Below are positions 8,901-58,542 of a DNA stretch of 64,000 bases, piece by piece. The stretch covers positions 477,563,429-477,627,428 of the forward strand of contig CM109176.1 in NCBI GenBank assembly GCA_048593225.1, read 5' to 3'. Position 1 is the stretch's first letter. Each line of letters opens with the position of its first letter. The stretch comes from Sarcophilus harrisii (Eukaryota). Under the pieces are notes generated by a model. That model was not told the origin of the DNA. It did not search any database and saw only the letters and a program-made list of their open reading frames with translations. Position numbers and translations under genes: made by a program.

Positions 8901-10467
8901 GAAGCAGAAATGTCATCATTAGCCAAAGCAATACCAAAACGGCCATTCTTAAAAAGAGGAGAAGGCCTAGCTAGGTTTACTAATGCTAAATCTAAAGTTC
9001 GAAAACCAAAAGAGAATAAATTAATGACTCATCAAAGCATGTCAGAAGAACAGCCAGTATTTAAAGCAGACAGACAACAAATACAGCGGAAAACTGCTCT
9101 TATAAATAAGGAACCAGTTACAGAGATGAAAAAGAGTAATCAAGTCAGAAACAAAACCAGTAATGCAGTTTCTCTGAAGTCAAAAGTACTTAGAAGTAAT
9201 AATGGGAAGAAATTTGATGGACAGCTTAAAGATCAAATGAAATTAGAAAAAAATAATAAGTTAGAACCTAATAAGGAAAATATACCAGAGTGTACAAAAC
9301 CCTTTGAAATAGGTTGCAAAGTCAAAAATAAACCACAATGCATAGAAAAGCCTCTTATTTCTACAGAACTGACCAATCCTGCCTCTGTTTCTAAAAGTTC
9401 TATGGGTCATATTGTAAAAGATTCAGACTTTTCTTTTGAAATTTCATTTCAAAAGAAATTAGACAATTGGGAAAAGGAAAAAGAAAAGGAGAACTTGGAG
9501 TTAGATGAATTTTTGTTCTTGGAACAAGCTGCTGATGAAATATCATTCTCTAGTAATTCCTCATTTGTATTAAAAATCTTAGAAAGAGACCAGCAGATTG
9601 GCAAAGGCCATAGAATGTCTTCTACCCCTGTCAAATCAGGGCAACAAGTAAAAGCAAATATAACAGATGTTGTTATTCCACACAACCAAAATAAGAAATC
9701 AAATCATATTAAACAAGATAAGAATATGTATGAAATAACAAAACATCTTGAATCAAAAGCATCACCTCAAAGTTTGAAAGAACAGATCAGCAAAGTCAGC
9801 AAAAAACCATTTCAAAATATTACTTCTGAGAGTCAAATCAAATGGAATGTAAGTGAGGATGAAGATGATGGGAACAGTGGTGTTAGCAGTGACTTTGAAG
9901 AGCATCTTGATAGTACCATAAAAGCAACAAATGAAGATACTAAAAACTTTTACAGCAGCAGCAGAGAAGATAATCCACAAAAGGGTGATGGTAAAGGACC
10001 TTTCAGAGACTCTAGGAAGGAGGGTAAAAACCGGGATATTGATCTGGATTTGTCAGATAAAGATGACAGTAGTGATGAATCCATCATAGTGGTAAGCATG
10101 AACGATAAAATTCCTAAGGCATCATGTGTAAATATGAATAAAATTGATTTTGATGATGAGAGAACATGGACTGACTTTGAAGAAAATGAAAGTAAAGATG
10201 ATGTACTTGGGAATGAAGATGTTAATGGGCTTCCTTTGATGGACTATTGTAGTAAAACTGAAATATCTAATTTGGACAAAGCAATAAAAAGGAAGGTTGC
10301 ACCCATAAAGAAAGGAGATGATTTGTGTAAATCCAGTAAGAGTATAAGCCCTCCTCCTACTAATGATCTGATGATGAAACTCTTTCCTTCCTTGAAGCCT
10401 AAACCTAGATCAGACCCACACTTAGCATCTGAATCTGAATTAAATAAAAGCCAAGAACAACCACTTG
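8901..10467 (+). CDS. CENPJ: CENPJ large central exon (1567 nt; equivalent of the human ~1.6-kb exon 7); EAEMSSLAKAIPKRPFLKRGEGLARF ... SQEQPLG
   Basis: A 522-codon uninterrupted frame (the ORF track entry 8910-10478 sits inside it). Acceptor tattttttag|GAAGCAG and donor CTTG|GTAAGT. Serine/acidic-rich, low-complexity composition typical of the CPAP central region. Confidence 0.9.
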
Positions 10468-11440
10468 GTAAGTCTTAATATTATCAGAAACTAAAGATTT
10501 ATCAAAATGTCATAAAGCTTAAATTTTTTTTGTGATTTCTATTTAGTAAGATCAGTTATTTGAAACCCTTAGGTTTCCTTTACTGATGTGTCATCAATAA
10601 AACATTTTTTTTGTTTGTATATTCCCATATAAGGTACTGTCCAGGTACCTCCTCACCAAAGATGTACAAGTTGTAATATGGACTCCTGTGGAGTTCACTG
10701 TCCAGGAGGAGACATGGGTGTATATAGATTACTATAGTACAATGTTTGATGTAGTAAAATATCAAGAAAATGCTCCAGGAACATAGTGGGAGGAAGTTTA
10801 GTAGACCTGACCCAAACATTAGTAAAACGGTTTAGAAGATGAGGGAAAGACATGTGGTTTTTAGTTTCCTAATTCCATATGTTATTCATTAATATACAAC
10901 CCAGTGATAGTCTAATGTCTTTCATAAACAATAAATATTCAACTTCCAGTTTTGTCATAAAGGGAAAGTTTAAAGGAATTCTTGTTTATGCACCCTTATT
11001 TCACCAATATTCTCACCCTGGAGTATCAGCAGACCTCTAATTTATCTCTAAAAATTTATGCCTTTATATAGCAAATTTGAGAGATGAGAATGTGTATATG
11101 TGTGTAAGATAGGAGGAACCTGTTTGCCCAAAACATCAAACTGGCAATGTCCATCTCATCTTTAGAATCTGACTGTATGTAACTTTAGTACCCAGCACAG
11201 TGTAGGTGATTTGTGATAGAACTTATAACATTCCAAGGGGCAGTGATATATGGTTCTTTTTATATATAGACCTCAGGTGCTTTCTTTAGAGAAATTAAGC
11301 CTATTTTTAATAATAGAAGCAGATCTTTTAAGTCATTTTAACTCTAAAATGTTTATATATTGTCATCATTTAATAATAGCAAGATTTTACTCTGTTTTCT
11401 GATTACAATTCAGCATTCATATTAATTTGATATGTTGTAG

Positions 11441-30409: not shown

Positions 30410-31700
30410 AAATTTTCTTTCCTCTTCCCTCCTCCCCAAGATAGCAAGCAATCTGATGTAGATTATATATGGGTCATTTTAAACATGTTTCCATATTAGT
30501 CATGTTGTGAAGGGAAAAACAAGAAAACAAAAGGTGAAAATATTATGTAAGCTTTGATGCACATTTTTAGTCTCCACAGTTCTCTCTGAATGTGGATAGC
30601 ATTTTTAATCCCAAGTTTATTGGAATTGTCTTGGATATCTTGTGTTGTTGAGATGAGTTGTTTCAGTTGATCTCAGTCTTGCTATTACTGTGTATAGTGT
30701 TCTCCTGGTACTACTTACTTTATTCAGCATCTAACTCTTTGCTCATTTTTTTAAATGGTTATTTTATTTTTCCAAATACATGTAGAGATAGTTTTCAACA
30801 TTTATTTTTGCAAAACTTTGTATTCCACATTTTTTCCCTTCCCCAGGTGGCAAGTAATTTCATGTAGGTTAAATAGGTGCAATTCTTTTGAACATATTTC
30901 CATATTTGTCATGTTACGCAAGAAAAAAATCAAATGGGGGGAAAAAACCCCACAAAAAAGAAAGCAAGTAAACAGCATCCCCTGCACCAGAAAAAAAAAG
31001 TGAATATGTTTTGATCTACGTTCAGTCTCCATAGTTCTTTCTCTGAATGTATATGGCTCTCTCCATCCTAAGTTTATTAGAATTGCCTTGAATCACTACA
31101 TTGTGAAAAGAGTCATTTGATCATCACATAATCTTGTTGCTACATCTCCCAGTTCTGCTCATTTCACTCAGCATCAGATCATGTAAATCTCTTCAGGCCT
31201 TTCAGAAATCCTGCTGATTGTTTTTTTATTTAATAGCTGCCACCAACACTTTTGGGTCCCTTTCCCTCCTTTAAGATCTCTTTGGGATATGTCCAGTAGG
31301 AACACTGTTGGGTCAAAAATTATGCAGAGTTTTATAGTTCTTTGGGCATAGTTCCAAATTGCTTTCAGAATGTTTGGATCACTTCACAAATCCACCAACA
31401 GTGTATTCAGTGTCCCAGTTTTCCCACATCCCCTCCAACATTTCCTCATTATCTTTTCTTGTCATATTGGCCTGAGAAGGGTGTAGTGGTACCTCAGTTT
31501 TAATTTACAGTTTTCTAATCAGAAGTGATTTAGCTGCTCATCATTTCTCATAGAACAATAACATATAACACAACTTATTCAGCCACTCTCCAATTGATGG
31601 GCATCTACTCAATTTCCAATTATTTGACACCACAAAAAAAGCTGCTGTGAATATTTTTGTTCATAATGATGAGCTTTTTGGTATTTTTGGGATACAGACC
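30410..31700 (-). mobile_element. L1 LINE 3' region (3' UTR plus ORF2 C-terminus), antisense, with an internal partial duplication (about 30420-30760 and 30840-31100)
   Basis: Shares …cctccccaagatagcaagcaa…ttccatattagtcatgttg… and …ctgctcatttcactcagcatcagatcatgtaaatctcttcaggcc… with the L1 copy at 52272-53263. Confidence 0.7.
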
Positions 31701-33316: not shown

Positions 33317-33457
33317 ATTGAAAAGGTTTTAAAAAGTGGGTGCCATGTTATCTTGTTTCCAAATGGAACCCGGAAAGAAGTGAGTTCAGATGGAAAAACT
33401 ACCACTATTACTTTTTTCAATGGAGATGTGAAAAAAGTCATGCCAGATGGAAGAGTG
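33317..33457 (+). CDS. CENPJ: CENPJ G-box/TCP10 C-terminal domain exon; [47 protein letters not shown]
   Basis: Acceptor (T)n ag|ATT and donor GTG|GTATGT. Matches the human CPAP G-box motif strongly ([44 protein letters not shown]). Confidence 0.9.
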
Positions 33458-33587
33458 GTATGTTTCCATATATATTTTCTACCCCTTTATGTTTCACATA
33501 CACACACACAGATAGTTTTTGTATAGAACTATATATGTATATGTGTTGTACATTCCCCCCCCCACACACAATATGAGCAAATCGTAG

Positions 33588-33698
<111 letters not shown>

Positions 33699-33810
33699 TG
33701 ATTTTTTTTTTTTTTTTTGCAATTCCGTCTCTGCTCCTATTTACTCTCCAAAGCAATTCAAAATGAGAATTCAGGTTCATGTCATACAATATACTATATC
33801 TTTAAACCAG

Positions 33811-33931
33811 AAAAGCATTTTCCAGATGGAAGAAAAGAAATCACATTTCCTGACCAGTCCATTAAAAATTTATTTGAAGATGGGAGAGAAGAAAGCATTT
33901 TCCCCGATGGTACCATTGTTCGAGTACAACA
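33811..33931 (+). CDS. CENPJ: CENPJ G-box exon; (E)[39 protein letters not shown](Q)
   Basis: Acceptor tttaaaccag|AA and donor CAACA|GTAAGA. Phase 1 in, phase 2 out. Matches human [40 protein letters not shown]. Confidence 0.85.
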
Positions 33932-34997
33932 GTAAGACTTGCTTAAATCTAACAGTATTTTTAAAATTGCACTCTGGCTTTTCTTACTAATGTCATTTCA
34001 CTCTCATTCAAAAACAAACTTGCACATTTTGTATTCTGAGTGTCAGATATTGATTAGGTCATTAGTTAAGACATACTGCAAATAGATAGCATCTTTACCC
34101 TAATAAATTTAGCACTGGTTAATAATCTAATCAAAAAACTGCATATTTATTAAACTCTTAACATTCAGATATTCTATATAAATAATGCATGAGCAGATGA
34201 TGATAAATTCAAGTCAGTGAATGTTTCCTGACAGCATTATTATTTTAGTTGGATCTCAGGTAGGAATGAATTTAGGAAAGATTTGTGTGTATACTGACAG
34301 GGTAGCCTAACAGCTAGCATGATTAGCATTTGATGAGATAAAGGAAAGGCACTATACAGTTTTGTAGTAGCTATGGACTAGATAGTTGCAGAGATGTGCA
34401 TGAAGACCATGTGCTTGCAGTAATCAAAGCATAAGATTAGAAGGTCTGGACCAAGATGATCAAAACAAAGAAAGGGTCATATTTGAAGAGTCATATTTTT
34501 CCTCCAATTTAAAAAAAAAATAGAATTTATTAATAAGTAGGTACAGAAGATAAAGGTACACAGCAGTTTTATTGAACTCTATGGAACATGAGAGCTTTTG
34601 GTAAAGAAGATAACAGTAAATAAACACAGTTTCTACTATAACATGCTTGGATTTTAGTGTGGCATCAAGCACAGAGGCAAAAGGAGATATAATATTAGGT
34701 TAGAACCCTGAAACATGAGGAAATTAGATGCAAAATCTGTAGAGGGAAGGGAGAACTGAATTTTGACTGCATATGAGGAACATGTGTGTGTGTGTGTGGG
34801 GATTGGGAGTGAGGAGAGTGTGTCTGAGGAACCAACTTGGGGGGGGTTGGGAGTGAGGAGGGAGTATCTATGAGGAACCATCTATTGAAGACAAAGATGG
34901 AGAAAAAATTGGGAGCTAATATTATTGGAGGTAGTGGCACCTCCTACATATAATGGGAAGAGAAACGTTAACTAAATTATTTTTTTTTTTTAAATAG

Positions 34998-35190
34998 AGA
35001 TGGCAACAAAATAATAGAATTTAACAATGGCCAAAGAGAACTTCACACTCCTCAGTTCAAGAGACGAGAATATCCAGATGGGACCATTAAGACTGTATAC
35101 TCTAATGGCCACCAAGAAACAAAGTTTATATCTGGTCGAGTAAGAATTAAAGATAAGGATGGAAATGTTTTGATGGACACCAAGTTGTAG
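34998..35190 (+). CDS. CENPJ: CENPJ terminal coding exon with stop; (Q)[63 protein letters not shown]
   Basis: Acceptor (T)n aaatag|AGA and stop TAG at 35188-35190. Matches the human CPAP C-terminus ...RIRVKDKEGNVLMDTEL*. Confidence 0.9.
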
Positions 35191-44039: not shown

Positions 44040-44650
44040 GTGCATGAGAAATTAAGACATCTCTGAGGTACCACTACACAGCTGTCAGATTGGCTAAGAT
44101 GACAGAAAAAGAAAATGACAAATGTTGGAGGGAACATGGAAAAACCAGGACACTGATACATTGTTGGCGAAGTTGTTAACTGATCCAAACATTCTGTAGA
44201 GCAATTTGGAACTTATGCCCAAAGGGCCTCAAACTGTGTGAAATCTTTAACCCAGTAATACTTTGATTAGGTTTGTATCCCAAAAAGATTAAATGAAAAA
44301 AGGAAAAAAGACTTGCACAAAAATATTTATGACAGCTCTTTTTATGGTGGCAAAAATGGAAATTGAGGGGATGCCCATCAATTAGGGAATGACCAAACAA
44401 ACTGTGATGGAACACTATGCTACAACAAATGGCCAGCAGATTCATTCCGAAAAATCCGGAAAGACTTCTGTGAACTCAAACAAGTTTAATGATCAGAACC
44501 AGAAAACACTGCACACAATACAGTATATAATACTGTATGATGAATGACTTAACCTATTCTCAGCATGATGATCAACTATTCTCAGAATACATTGTCAAAT
44601 AATTCCAAAGGACTTGGTGAAAGTGCTATCCATCTTCAGACAAAACTGAA
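44040..44650 (+). mobile_element. L1 LINE fragment (ORF2 C-terminal region), sense orientation
   Basis: ggatgcccatcaattagggaatgaccaaacaaactgtgatggaacactatgctacaacaaatgg... is the conserved L1 ORF2 C-terminal block. The ORF-track entry 44176-44445(-) is a spurious antisense frame. Confidence 0.7.
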
Positions 44651-52271: not shown

Positions 52272-53263
52272 TTTTTTTTTTTTTGAATCTTTTTTTTTTT
52301 TAAATTTATAGCCTTTTATTTACATGATATATACATGGGTAATTTTACAGCATTAACAATTGCCAAACCTCTTGTTCCAATTTTTCACCTCTTACCTCCC
52401 CCCCTCCCCTAGATGGCAGGATGACCAGTAGATGTTAAATATATTAAAATATAAATTAGATACACAATAAGTATACCCGACCAAAACGTTATTTTGCTGT
52501 AGAAAAAGAATCAGACTCTGAAATATTGTACAATTAGCTTGTGAAGGAAATCAAAAATGCAGGTGGGCATAAATATAGGGATTGGGAATTCAATGTAATG
52601 GTTTTTAGTCATCTCCCAGAGTTATTTTTCTGGGCATAGCTAGTTCAGTTCATTACTGCTCCATTAGAAATGATTTGGTTGATCTCGTTGCTGAGGATGG
52701 CCTGATCCATCAGAACTGGTCATCATATAGTATTGTTGTTGAAGTATATAATGATCTCCTGGTCCTGCTCATTTCACTCAGCATCAGTTCATGTAAGTCT
52801 CTCCAGGCCTTTTTGAAATTATCCTGTTGGTCATTTCTTACAGAACAGTAATATTCCATAATTTTCATATACCACAATTTATTCAACCATTCTCCAACTG
52901 ATGGACATCCATTCAGTTTCCAGTTTCTAGCCACTACAAAAAGGGCTGCCACAAACATTCGTGCACATACAGGTCCCTTTCCCTTCTTTATAATCTCTTT
53001 GGGATATAATCCCAGTAGTAACACTGCTGGATCAAAGGGTATGCACAGTTTGATAACTTTTTGAGCATAGTTCCAAACTACTCTCCAAAATGGTTGGATT
53101 CGTTCACAACTCCACCAACAATGCATCAATGTCCCAGTTTTCCCGCATCCCCTCCAACAATCATCATTATTTTTTCCTGTCATCTTAGCCAATCTGACAG
53201 GTGTGTAGTGGTATCTTAGAGTTGTCTTAATTTGCATTTCTCTGATTAATAATGACTTGGGAG
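52272..53263 (-). mobile_element. 5'-truncated L1 (3' UTR plus C-terminal ORF2), antisense, with 17-bp TSD
   Basis: TSD TCTCCTTTTCAAATGTT at 52255-52271 and 53264-53280. The 175-aa minus-strand ORF at 52710-53237 (…HCWWSCERIQPFWRVVWNYAQKV…DPAVLLLGLYPKEI…) is the typical L1 ORF2 C-terminus. Poly-T at 52272-52310 is the A-tail. Confidence 0.9.
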
Positions 53264-54539
53264 TCTCCTTTTCAAATGTTGCTGAAGGAAGTCACGTAAT
53301 TTTGCTGCCTGGGTTTGCTGTAAGTCATAGTTATCTAATCCTGGAATAAAGAAGTCTTCCCCTAACTGATTCTCTTTCCCACTCTCCCGAAAGGCTGCCC
53401 CAACCTCTTTTTCAAGCCTCTCAAAGTAACTCTTCCCCATTTGATCAAGGTCCTTGACTCATAATAATAAAAAGGCCATTTGCCATGATCTTTTATAGAG
53501 CAGAAACTCCATTAATTCAAAATCCTTTGATCTTCTTTGCTCTGCCCTTTACTCAAGTTGAAAGGCAGCCTCTTTCCCCACAAAATCAAATCCTTACACG
53601 TAGCCCAAATTCTGTCTAATCCTCTTATCTCTGTCAGACTGTCCCTAAAATAAGTCCTATAATGTATATCATCTTCAATCTCTATTGTTTCTCTCTAATC
53701 TACAAACCTTGTAAAGTTTCTCCATCTTTAAAAAATGTCCACGAGATCCTACCCTCTCAAATTGCTGTTCTAAATCTGTCCTTCCTTTCACAGCTAAATA
53801 CCTAAAAAAGCTGCTGTTATTTCTTGCTTTTCCTTCTCCCTTCTCAACTCTTGGCAATATGGAGTCTGACGTTATTACACACGACTGAAATAATTTTCTA
53901 TAAAATTACTAGTGATTTCTTAATTACCAAATATAATAATTTTTTCTCAATCATCATCATTTTTTAAAAATAATAACTTTTTTTTCTCTAAACATATGCA
54001 TGGATAATTTGACAATATCAACTCTTGCATAGTCTTGTGTTTCAGACTTTCTCCTCTTTCCCCCTGCCCCCTTCCTTAGATGGCAAGCAATTCAATATAT
54101 GTTAAACAAATAATCATCTTCTTAACTTCTCTATAAACTTGACTCTGCTGATTTATTTTTTTTATGGATATTCTCTCCTGTCTTTGTTTTTTAAAAACTG
54201 CTATGATGTAGAAACCATCTCCTTTTCTGGATCATCATCCATTTTCTGCCTTTTAAATGGACATAATGCAACATTTTGTCCGAGATCTGTTTTCATTTCC
54301 CTATATAATCACTTGACTTCATCAACCCCTATGGGATTAATGGTAACATTTCTGCAAATGATTTCCAGGTCTACATATTTATCCCAGTCTCTATCCTTAT
54401 ATACAGTGCCCTGTCATCAACTGACTGTTGAATGTTATGAACTTGCTGTTCCACATGAAATTAAAGTCAGACCCAAAGCACAATTTGGCATCCTCTCCAA
54501 AACTGCCACTTCTGAACTATCCCATTTATGATACCACTA

Positions 54540-54660
54540 TTCTTTTTTTTTTTTTTTTTTGCTGAGACAATTGGGATTAAGTGACTTGCCCAGGGTCACA
54601 CAGCTAGGAAATGTTAAGTGTCTGAGTTCAGGGCTGGTGTTCTAACCACTACACCACCTA
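54540..54660 (-). mobile_element. Marsupial tRNA-derived SINE, reverse orientation
   Basis: (T)20 gctgagacaattgggattaagtgacttgcccagggtcacacagctagg...ggtgttctaaccactacaccacctagcc. Confidence 0.85.
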
Positions 54661-55255
54661 GCCTTTTGATGTTCTCCTTGATTCTTCAAATATCCAACAT
54701 GTCCTACTTATGTAGTCAGTCATTCATTATATTTGCCATTTCTACTTGTTTGAAATTTTATTTGTTCCCCTCTTTTTACTCATGCAGCAGCCTCCCTAGT
54801 TCTGATCGTCATTATTTTGACATTTGGCTATTACACTATTCTTTTTATCATTCAGGTTTGCAAGTTTGGGAAGAGAAGCAATATAAACTGATAGAACAAG
54901 TTGGGAAGGCCCTTCAAAAGAAGGGGAATCACTGAAATTTTCTGGGTAGAGAAGTAATTTGATCAAACATGGGTTTTTACACATATTACCTTGGCGGCAT
55001 TGTGAAGAACCAATGGGAACAGAAAGAAACTAGCAGCAGGGAAAGGCAATCAGGAGACTGCCACAATAGCCAAATGTCAAAATAATAAGGACCAGAACTA
55101 GGGAGGTTGCTGCATGAGTAAAAAGAGGGGAACAAATAAAATTTCGAACAAGTAGAAATGGCAAATATGATGAATGACTGACTACATAAGTAGGCCATGT
55201 TGGATATTTGAAGAATCAAGGAGAACATCAAAAGGCTATCTTGGGGAAAGTAATT
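54661..55255. repeat. Large inverted duplication: arms ~54661-54845 and ~55060-55250 (about 90% identical in reverse complement) separated by a ~215-bp spacer
   Basis: The ORF track shows mirror peptides (54618-54935(+) and 54986-55294(-) both contain LLMFSLILQISNM.YLCSQSFIIFAISTC.KFYLFPSFYSCS). Direct comparison confirms reverse-complement identity of the arms. Confidence 0.8.
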
Positions 55256-55751: not shown

Positions 55752-56487
55752 CTATTAAGTACAATTAAGAAGTAGTTAAATTTCAAAACGGTATTGATTT
55801 AACTTGAAAATTGAGTGTCTATGTTCATTCCACAAAACTACAATTATGCTCCCTAAAAAACAATATGGTTTTGTAAGTCAGAGCACTAAATCACAAGTTT
55901 TTTCCAAAGTATTTTTCTTTACTTATAAAGAGCTATAATGTGTTGTACTATGTGATAATGACAGCTATCATTCATCTAAAAATTAAAAGTAAATAAAATG
56001 CTTTCTTCACAGTAATTCCATGAAACATGTAGTGAGGCATTTTTATCCTCTGTCAAGATGTATACAGAAATGACTTGCTCAGGATCACATCACTATTAAA
56101 TGACAGAGTGAAATTTTCTCATCCTAGTTCCAGAATTGTTTTAATCACACAATGTCTAAAAATGGCATATTTGAGTCTGGAACTCAAAATCCAATTAAGA
56201 AAAGAATACTAAAAATAAATAAGTTAAGGGAAAAAAAAAAAACTATCTGTACACACCTTTGTTAGTAGTCATCTAAAACAACGATGTACTAGACCTCATT
56301 TAGGTTGTAGCTGTCCATTCTGCTAAACACTTCAAGTCTAGAGCATCACTCCTTTCTCTTCCCCCACAAAATGTTCCTAGAGAACTGACGGCTAAGTTGA
56401 TTTTCCAAAGCATTGTTCTGAATACCATTTCCCTATTCAAAAATGGTGCAATGGTTCCCTAAAATCCTTTCTCTGAAAAATTTCCAG

Positions 56488-56520
56488 TTCTACCGCATCT
56501 GTCTGCCAAGAGTTTCCAAT
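56488..56520 (-). pseudogene. Partial duplicate (decoy/pseudo-exon) of the RNF17 exon at 57536-57616. It shares the acceptor and the first 33 nt (IGNSWQTDAVE), then diverges and reaches an in-frame TGA after 27 codons with no usable donor
   Basis: Direct repeat: + strand ~56484-56715 versus ~57580-57815, about 93% identical and including the ttatcccaattag acceptor. Copy 1 on the minus strand reads IGNSWQTDAVELEIFQRKDFREPLHHF*. Confidence 0.6.
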
Positions 56521-57535
56521 CTAATTGGGATAAAAATGTTATCTTCCATGAACAAAAAAGAAAACAGAACAAGAAACTGTCTGATATACAAAAGCCAGAG
56601 AATCATAATGAAATTATGTTCAAAATAAAGTTCCAAAAACCTCACAAAGGTAAATATTATTGCATTTTGGTTTGCACCTATGACCCCACTGTTGTAATGA
56701 ATCCTACAACTTACTATTTACATGTTACCATATTATTATTTCCTAAAATCCAATTCTTGCTCCCACTAAATTCCTTTCATTATTTCTCTACAGAAATATT
56801 CCTTTTTGCCAAATTATATACTGTTTCCAAAACAAGGTTCAGTGAAAATCATATTGTTGTTTCAAGGCAAATAAACTTTTCTACTTTTCCCTCGACATTT
56901 TCTTGTGATGTCCAGGCCTGAAGTCTAAATCTAGAATCACTACTCATTCACAACTCACATCTGCTACTCTCAACTGTTTTTGGTCTTTGCATATACAAGG
57001 CTGTCTCTTTGGAGAAATAAGCCTTTTTTTTTTTTTTTTAAAAAGAACTCTGAAGGTTGCCCCATAGATAGCAACACTCTCATACTGCATGAATGTTTCT
57101 TCTTTTAGTTGAATATGTCTCTTAAAAGCAAAGGATCATGGTCAGAGTTTTAAAGCTGAAAGAACCTTAAAAGTCAGCTAGTCTAACCCTCTTATTTTAA
57201 AGAGAAGGATATTAAAACTCAGAAGGATCAAAAGACTTGCCCAAGATCACAATGGTATTAAATGTGTCTCAGATTTCTAAACAAACTCCTTTAAATCTAA
57301 ATCCCATATTATTTCTGCTCCAGCTTCCTTTGACCAGGCTTAATATTGCTGCATACCACACAAAGTAAAATTAAGTTAAAATTTAGTTACTGAAAACTAA
57401 AATGAAGCTTATAAATATTCTGTGTGCCCTTTAAAAAATTTAGATTTAGATATTAGTTATTCTCTCAAATTAATATTTTTAAGGAATTCTTATGACATAT
57501 CAATACAAATAACTGCTTAAACATTAATGAGTTAC

Positions 57536-57616
57536 CATGTTATGAATTTCTACTTCTCTTTTTGGTAGTAGTTCTTGAAGAAGTTCTACTGCATCTGACT
57601 GCCAAGAGTTTCCAAT
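57536..57616 (-). CDS. RNF17: RNF17 coding exon; [27 protein letters not shown]
   Basis: Acceptor ttatcccaattag|ATT and donor AACATG|GTAACT. 27 codons, phase 0 at both ends. Parallels human [27 protein letters not shown]. Confidence 0.8.
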
Positions 57617-58542
57617 CTAATTGGGATAAAAATATTATCTTCCGTGAACAAAAAAGAAAACAGAAGAAACTGTCTGATATAGAAAAGCCAGAGAATCATA
57701 ATAAAATTATGTTCAAAATAAAGTTCCAAAAACCTCACAAAGGTAAATATTATTGCATTTTGGTTTACATCTGCGATTCCACTGTTGTAATGAATACTAC
57801 AATTTGTTCACAATATATGGTTTTAGAGAGTTGCCCAGGGTCACATACCTACTATGGACAGGGGTGGGATTTCAACTTAGGTTTTCCCGACTCCCATTTT
57901 TTAAAAAAACCTTTGAATCCAGTATTTTATCTATCATACCATAATGCTTCTCTTTTATATTTAAGTTGCAAAGTTCTTCTGTCTGAAATAATCTAAGGTG
58001 ATTTTATTAACTCCTACCTAACACTTTTATGAAACAGATTCTCCTAAAATTGGTCAATTGTATAACAGAAATAATAAGAAACATGTTCAAGCAAATACAA
58101 TTCTATTACGCTGAAACGCAAAAAGGAAAAAAGCACATTAGCAAGCTTAAAACTTCTTCACTTTTTTAACGCCCCCCCCCCAAAATACTTATTCCATGTA
58201 TAATCAAACCCTACACTTAACACTATCAGAAGGATCTTAGCTTCCCTTAAATTAAAACGTGTGCACATGCGCGTGCATGCACACACACGTGGGACATTTT
58301 CCAGGCACAAAAACACAGAATACCAAAAATAAAACAAATCAAAATATAAAATATGAATTCTAGGATTGTTTTTAGTATATTTATTAGTATACTAAAAGTT
58401 AGTATACTTGTTTGTACTATTGAGCATAAGTACTCCTTAGTCCTGGATTATCCTACGTCTTAAACACCGAGTATTGGAGCAATCATAATGGGAAGAATAT
58501 TTAGATTATTACATTTATGATACAACAAATCAATTTACTTAC

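Follow-up and report, generated by a model that had tools for sequence, protein, structure and literature searches.

The closest described relatives of the element reported here are the proximal repair-mediated duplications, of which Pace et al. (2009) identified 824 in human DNA and which have been attributed to synthesis-dependent strand annealing after a double-strand break (PMC2671141). Members of this class have a mean length of 162 bp and a maximum of 619 bp, lie on the same chromosome as their source at an average distance of 1.2 kb and rarely more than 5 kb away, and are never poly-A-tailed (PMC2671141). Their breakpoints carry microhomology, filler of 1-68 nt or target-site duplications of 4-21 nt, some members are chimeras from two nearby donors, and among the donors are partial exon/intron segments and intron splice sites (PMC2671141). 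The survey was based on insertions that lie within transposable elements and covered primates and six further vertebrates, none of them a marsupial (PMC2671141). A second system to be considered is that of the decoy exons, which are cassettes found, and enriched, in large (>1 kb) retained introns (Parra et al. 2018, PMC6097662). They show high sequence conservation, both of their splice sites are functional, and they are recognized by U2AF binding and by junction reads (PMC6097662; PMC7373989).

Here we describe a partial copy of an exon and its flanking intron in the next intron of a Tudor-domain gene, which is probably a new instance of repair-mediated proximal duplication with the twist of an apparently permuted two-piece structure. 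The window, by which we mean the whole 64-kb stretch of DNA that was analysed, contains on its minus strand the following parts of this gene (a caret marks splice-site or block boundaries throughout).

Exon X, 60698-60535, minus strand: start of the Tudor domain also encoded by exons Y and Z.
Exon Y, 58662-58543, minus strand: the exon that precedes Z, with the donor CCT^gtaagt.
Exon Z, 57616-57536, minus strand: the genuine exon, 81 nt, phase 0/0, part of an extended Tudor domain.
Exon W, 55751-55626, minus strand: the next exon after Z, 126 nt, phase 0/0.
Last Tudor domain, 39437-38968, minus strand: two exons downstream of the copy, conserved with comparison locus L003, Pfam TUDOR 1.7e-14.

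The joined translation of exons X, Y and Z matches Pfam TUDOR at 6.6e-15, and two separate exon groups with such matches (6.6e-15 and 1.7e-14) mean that the gene encodes several Tudor domains; further conserved minus-strand exons lie between W and 39437-38968. Structural matches in the PDB were to the extended Tudor domains of SND1, TDRD1 and Qin, with exon Z falling in the C-terminal extension of the fold, and this search returned other Tudor proteins only, with no RNF17 entry among the matches. On the plus strand the neighbouring gene is CENPJ/CPAP, identified by Pfam Tubulin-bind_CPAP in a 525-codon exon (8901-10475) and by Tcp10_C at 33.3-35.2 kb (1.7e-38), and its 3' end near 35187 converges tail to tail on the minus-strand Tudor gene. 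RNF17 is named directly ahead of CENPJ in a description of the human 13q12.12 segment (PMC5017670), and its product combines an E3 domain with five Tudor domains (PMC4511215). The window covers the gene without its 5' part, and the RING/E3 region lies outside. The Tudor domains and the synteny with CENPJ/CPAP make it very probable that the gene is RNF17, as a sequence-only reading of this DNA had proposed. Spermatogenesis requires RNF17, which also restrains piRNA ping-pong (PMC4511215).

The copy and its source form a direct repeat around and downstream of the acceptor of exon Z.

Source block A, 57582-57805, minus strand: the final 189 nt of the Y-Z intron, including its acceptor, followed by 35 nt from the start of exon Z.
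Copy A', 56486-56712, minus strand: 192 nt derived from the intron, including its acceptor AG (56522-56521), followed by 35 nt derived from the exon (56520-56486).

Copy A' sits within the 1784-nt Z-W intron (57535-55752), downstream of its source, from which it is separated by a gap of 869 nt (1096 nt start to start). Aligned on the plus strand, 56486-56712 and 57582-57805 have the same orientation and are 92.5% identical over 227 columns (BLAST E = 7e-93, K2P = 0.066), the differences being 14 substitutions (11 transitions and three transversions) and one 3-bp indel. This is the top-scoring self-match in the whole window, where just two copies are present, and a 27-mer taken from the block likewise occurs at these two sites only. 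The sequence-only reading had placed direct repeats of about 93% identity at approximately 56484-56715 and 57580-57815; identity and orientation hold, while the blocks prove 2-10 nt shorter. Its central claim, that a 3' splice site and the head of a Tudor exon were copied locally into the downstream intron of the same gene, is borne out, with 35 rather than 33 nt of exon included.

The edges of homology are sharp. Collinear flanks of 400 nt align at the level of shuffled sequence on both sides, and a larger duplication was therefore rejected at that distance. The block ends read ...aaatttcc^AGTTC and ...CAACTT^actattta, and neither carries poly-A. The block includes intron sequence and lacks poly-A, which contradicts retroposition. 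Origin of both blocks as copies of a dispersed transposable-element family is contradicted by homology that runs unbroken across the intron-exon boundary into an exon conserved in distant vertebrates; in addition, there are two copies in the 64-kb window, no poly-A tail and no terminal inverted repeats, and two exact-pattern scans of metagenome contigs and one protein search with a plus-strand frame, which are weak tests, returned no match. We give this explanation hardly any credence. The same holds for an assembly artefact, in which the second block would stem from a mis-joined haplotype or from collapse or expansion of a region: a difference of 7.5% is far above allelic divergence and both copies are embedded in unique, non-homologous flanks, which leaves this reading exceedingly improbable.

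Which block is the original was decided by comparison with four loci (L003-L006) on contigs of other vertebrates, fetched through the open reading frame of the neighbouring exon. All four carry the same three exons in the same order, and each has one copy of a third exon of 81 nt whose AG^ and ^GT stand at positions identical to those of exon Z (...ccaattag^ and ^gtaac on the minus strand); the orthologous peptides read VGNVWQQDAVDCLQELLTNEEVEIHVQ or VGNFWQRDAVYLLQKLLTNEEVEIHVQ. The matches to the neighbouring exon in the protein collection were single-exon open reading frames of other vertebrates at no more than 86% identity, and the contigs for two of them, P0013 and P0019, stop at the exon. 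Judged by this conservation, 57582-57805 is the source and carries the ancient, genuine exon Z, as had been supposed for the real exon at 57536-57616, and 56486-56712 is the derived copy because the boundaries and peptide of exon Z are those conserved in L003-L006. The intronic part of the block aligned with the corresponding intron in L003 or L005 no better than expected by chance, and a conserved intronic regulatory element was on this ground rejected as an explanation for the block.

Substitutions are spread similarly over the two parts of the copy, with 2/35 positions differing in exon-derived and 12/189 in intron-derived sequence, a pattern of divergence that looks neutral. Neutral rates are assumed here to be 1-3e-9 per site per year. 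With these rates, the K2P of 0.066 would place the duplication roughly 11-33 million years ago.

The copied exon head encodes IGNSWQTDAVE and continues with CT, beyond which the sequence is unrelated to exon Z. Translation from 56520 gives IGNSWQTDAVELEIFQRKDFREPLHHF and then a stop: the frame is lost right after the breakpoint of copy A', the in-frame TGA is codon 28, exactly as previously noted, and more stops follow. Upstream of A' in gene orientation, the 50 nt preceding the copy contain what appears to be a second fragment of the same exon, and the whole insert is bracketed by a possible direct repeat.

Source piece D, 57552-57531, minus strand: the last 17 nt of exon Z and the donor gtaac.
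Copy D', 56745-56724, minus strand: 18/22 identity to D, with a pseudo-donor ATG^GTAACA whose GT is at 56728-56727.
Possible filler, 56713-56723, minus strand: 11 nt between D' and A', matching neither source flank.
Left flanking repeat, 56455-56467, no strand assigned: 13 nt, TTCCCTAAAATCC, possible target-site duplication or microhomology.
Right flanking repeat, 56739-56751, no strand assigned: 13 nt, TTTCCTAAAATCC, overlapping the end of D' by 7 nt.

D' (TAGGAAATAATAATATGgtaac) agrees with D (TAGAAATTCATAACATGgtaac) at 18/22 positions, a short match, spotted post hoc, with p=0.06 against shuffles and p=0.005 against 3873 real 50-nt windows. The flanking repeat, TT(C/T)CCTAAAATCC, was likewise noticed post hoc (12/13 identity, p=0.054); its 10-mer CCTAAAATCC occurs on the plus strand of the window in these two places only. 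D' lies 11 nt upstream of A', while in the source D lies 29 nt downstream of block A, and those 29 nt (57553-57581) are the exon Z nucleotides absent between the two copied pieces. The insert thus holds 35 nt of the head and 17 nt of the tail of the 81-nt exon, with the tail ahead of the head. These features are suggestive of a composite and circularly permuted insert, a structure that is new here and had been missed by the earlier reading, and on the evidence of the two pieces the insert duplicates both splice sites of the conserved exon Z.

This arrangement bears on two other routes to a local copy. Tandem exon duplication is common in animals, and Letunic, Copley and Bork reportedly described in 2002 how it gives rise to mutually exclusive exons. 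The present insert resembles such duplications in being derived from an exon and lying, with its orientation kept, in the neighbouring intron, and its 1096-nt spacing could reflect a unit of about 1.1 kb, with the whole exon, that was duplicated and then reduced to the present block by deletions and decay. It differs from them in that 35 + 17 of the 81 exon nucleotides are present, permuted, with the frame broken and in a layout that is not exon-like. In place of a complete collinear exon with acceptor and donor there is a 35-nt head and a 17-nt tail, in place of an open frame compatible with the neighbouring exons the sequence runs into a TGA at codon 28, and the 400-nt collinear flanks retain no residual similarity. 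Furthermore, the exon tail and donor fragment are on the wrong side of the block, and this origin would call for a deletion whose end falls exactly within the exon. Because D' lies upstream of A', the insert does not read as a decayed collinear exon duplication; the permuted two-piece order and the unrelated flanks would contradict such an origin, which we regard as unlikely.

Permutation is what would be expected had a circle of about 290 bp been cut out of, or copied from, the neighbourhood of exon Z, opened within the exon and integrated 0.8 kb downstream in the germline. Circles of this length fall in the known size range of microDNA. Such an event would explain the D'-A' order in one step, with a mere 29 nt of exon (57553-57581) missing between the pieces and a total size within the microDNA range. 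However, two template switches during repair lead to an identical insert, the 11-nt junction has no match in either source flank, and the D' match is short. We consider reintegration of a small circular DNA an unlikely alternative. If it were true, the locus would be a small natural case of circle-mediated duplication, one that placed the acceptor and the donor of an essential exon in the intron that follows it.

By its dimensions the insert sits within the repair-mediated class (PMC2671141). It is 227 bp long, or about 260 bp if D' and the filler are counted, where at least 50 bp is the criterion of the class; its source is 869 nt away (1096 nt start to start), within the 5 kb that delimits the class; and its ends are free of poly-A/T. 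A possible 11-nt filler and a possible 13-nt flanking repeat or microhomology would match the described breakpoints, and the seeming derivation from two nearby source pieces recalls the chimeric cases. The source, too, is of a described kind, being a partial exon/intron segment with a splice site. In contrast to the surveyed members, the insertion site is not visibly inside a transposable element, and the two source pieces are neighbours whose order is permuted in the insert.

The reading that we favour, and hold to be reasonably probable, is that of a break-repair patch that drifted neutrally and has no function, its mechanism, age and lack of function all being reconstructed from the sequence. 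A double-strand break would have occurred in the intron downstream of exon Z, and repair would have copied nearby DNA by synthesis-dependent strand annealing in which the template was switched. The D'-filler-A' order could result from two rounds of strand invasion, giving a patch of about 260 bp that consists of the 22-nt end of exon Z with its donor, the 11-nt filler, and 227 nt comprising the intron end, the acceptor and the exon head. The copy would then have drifted neutrally, and the spliceosome would either ignore it or make trace use of it, giving transcripts destined for nonsense-mediated decay.

Whether the copied acceptor might nevertheless act in splicing was approached with a simple position-weight matrix for splice sites. 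Its frequencies are approximate values after published tables, and the scores are therefore rough and not equivalent to those of MaxEntScan. The copied acceptor differs from the genuine one by a single change in the last 20 intron bases (t/c at -18, pyrimidine to pyrimidine), with an intact polypyrimidine tract and a retained likely branch site ttcAy, and the earlier statement that the acceptor and IGNSWQTDAVE were preserved was correct. With this rough matrix, genuine and copied exon Z acceptors score 2.7 bits each and the exon Y acceptor 9.1 bits, and 20/129 other AGs in the Z-W intron outscore the copied acceptor. Genuine exon Z must depend on exon definition via its own donor and purine-rich 3' half, neither of which the copy has in exon position. 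The D' pseudo-donor scores 4.1 bits by the same rough measure, rank 8 of 90 GTs in the intron; since the copied donor is upstream of the copied acceptor, the D'-A' layout has the wrong order for an exon. Three other donor-like sites follow the copied acceptor.

GCG^GTAGAA, 27 nt past the copied acceptor: 2.9 bits, in phase and ahead of the stop.
ATG^GTATTC, 95 nt past the copied acceptor: 1.5 bits.
AAG^GTGTGT, GT at 56255-56256, minus strand: 264 nt past the copied acceptor, 9.5 bits, the best GT of the intron.

The first of these corrects the assertion that no GT donor lies in phase, weak though this site is. Use of the third would close a stop-rich pseudo-exon of 264 nt. On sequence grounds some use of the copied acceptor is possible, given the intact acceptor region and the good donor-like site 264 nt on, and a 264-nt stop-rich cassette is conceivable, which would be a substrate for nonsense-mediated decay. 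As had been pointed out, a transcript using the copy would meet a stop ahead of the last Tudor domain, whose exons are at 39437-38968. The term pseudo-exon does not suit the layout, in which the donor fragment precedes the acceptor fragment. The view of the copy as unusual, or as a serious competitor for the genuine site, is not supported: on the rough matrix its 2.7-bit acceptor is exceeded by 20 AGs of the same intron, and partial exon/intron and splice-site copies at about 1 kb have been described as a by-product of break repair (PMC2671141).

In several respects the copy resembles the pseudo-exons and pseudo splice sites found in introns: its AG comes with a pyrimidine tract and is followed by donor-like GTs, every continuation runs into stops, and the Z-W intron contains many other pseudo-sites that are equal or better. 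It differs in that its acceptor was copied from a real one rather than born by chance, and so brings with it 35 nt of true exon.

A stronger proposal would be a functional decoy or poison element, whose acceptor binds U2AF/U2 and promotes retention of the Z-W intron, or is spliced with the donor after 56257 into a stop-containing cassette, and which thereby tunes RNF17 output in the testis. The near identity of the copied and genuine acceptor regions, the 9.5-bit donor-like GT 264 nt downstream and the 1784 nt of the Z-W intron, which is in the size class (>1 kb) enriched for decoy exons (PMC6097662), are compatible with this proposal. Like decoy exons (PMC6097662; PMC7373989), the copy is a non-productive splice-site element in an intron of more than 1 kb whose inclusion would lead to nonsense-mediated decay. 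Unlike them, it appears to evolve neutrally and is known here from sequence alone, and whereas known decoy exons are highly conserved it is young (probably 10-30 million years). The weak acceptor, above which 20 AGs of the intron score, the neutral-looking divergence and the displacement of the purine-rich 3' exon part and donor from exon position also argue against a decoy function, which we deem very unlikely.

Other kinds of function were considered for both copies. The plus-strand open frames that cover them are unusually long (152 and 166 codons) and the indel is of 3 bp; coding on this strand was rejected, as most differences checked by eye (not formally tallied) alter the amino acid and the protein collection held no homologue. 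An Rfam search of both copies gave no match, so that a snoRNA or miRNA reading was rejected, and RNA folding of the copies was no better than that of shuffles (z-scores +0.6 and +0.7). Because of the weak acceptor, the wrong donor order, the neutral-like divergence and this lack of Rfam, structure or coding signal, we regard the copy as most probably inert and without function.

For the biology of RNF17 the insert would carry little weight if the copy is not spliced. In principle, a cassette that brings in a stop could reduce RNF17 output; nothing here suggests that it does so. The interest of the locus may lie instead in its being a clean and datable patch of apparent break repair that duplicates the acceptor and the donor of a conserved exon, in a marsupial, a group outside the original survey (PMC2671141), and in a permuted two-piece structure that would record the path of repair. 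The locus also illustrates that intronic sequence resembling an exon is not necessarily the remnant of a duplicated exon in decay.

Elsewhere in this part of the window there are repeat-like sequences. A 35-nt match of 80% identity between 56068-56102 and 57230-57264 looks like two unrelated MIR-type fragments. A SINE is present at 54547-54655, which we take to resemble the tRNA-headed, MIR-core SINEs of marsupials.

Both copies of the duplicated block, the source at the acceptor of exon Z and the derived copy in the Z-W intron, are overlain on the opposite strand by unusually long stop-free frames, and the 3-bp indel between the copies preserves the frame:

56463-56918, + strand: stop-free frame of 152 codons, antisense over the derived copy
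57496-57993, + strand: stop-free frame of 166 codons, antisense over the source copy

Most of the inter-copy differences inspected (a subset, by eye) alter the amino acid and no homologue was present in the protein collection. We therefore rejected them as a gene and regard them as chance occurrences.

Fragments of a MIR-type SINE core (motif …gacttgcccaag(g/a)tcaca…) lie on either side of the source block and within the spacer, and appear to account for the weak 35-nt repeat between 56068-56102 and 57230-57264:

57140-57330: MIR-type SINE core fragment
57815-57900: MIR-type SINE core fragment
56068-56102: MIR-type SINE core fragment

The RNF17 intron next after the Z-W intron carries an inverted repeat immediately adjoining a SINE (54547-54655):

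54659-54832 and 55065-55238: arms of the inverted repeat, 174 nt each, 96% complementary, spaced by 232 nt

Two possible readings of this structure are a second young local repair duplication, in this case inverted, and an element bearing long terminal inverted repeats. Its Rfam match to MIR2630, a plant miRNA hairpin family, scores 41 bits, far below the gathering score of 144, and reflects only the long hairpin.

Ordinary interspersed repeats are also represented by an open frame, which we take to be LINE-1 ORF2-like from a peptide motif, and by related pieces elsewhere in the window:

52713-53291, - strand: ORF2-like open frame of 193 codons (peptide …TLRYHYTPVRLAKMT…)
44049-44502 and 31255-31519: fragments related to this frame, 71-78% identical

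The Tudor gene is convergent, tail to tail, with a neighbour identified by its CPAP tubulin-binding motif, within a 525-codon exon (8901-10475, + strand), and by Tcp10_C (G-box) repeats in exons at ~33317-35187 (+ strand), with a stop at the end:

8901-35187, + strand: CENPJ/CPAP gene

Orthologous Tudor-gene exons were found on vertebrate host DNA in metagenome and sequencing-run assemblies, namely two JGI metagenome contigs (L003 and L004) and three Logan contigs (L005-L007). The introns are far shorter in these contigs; the Z-W intron, for example, spans ~680 nt in L003 versus 1784 nt in the window.
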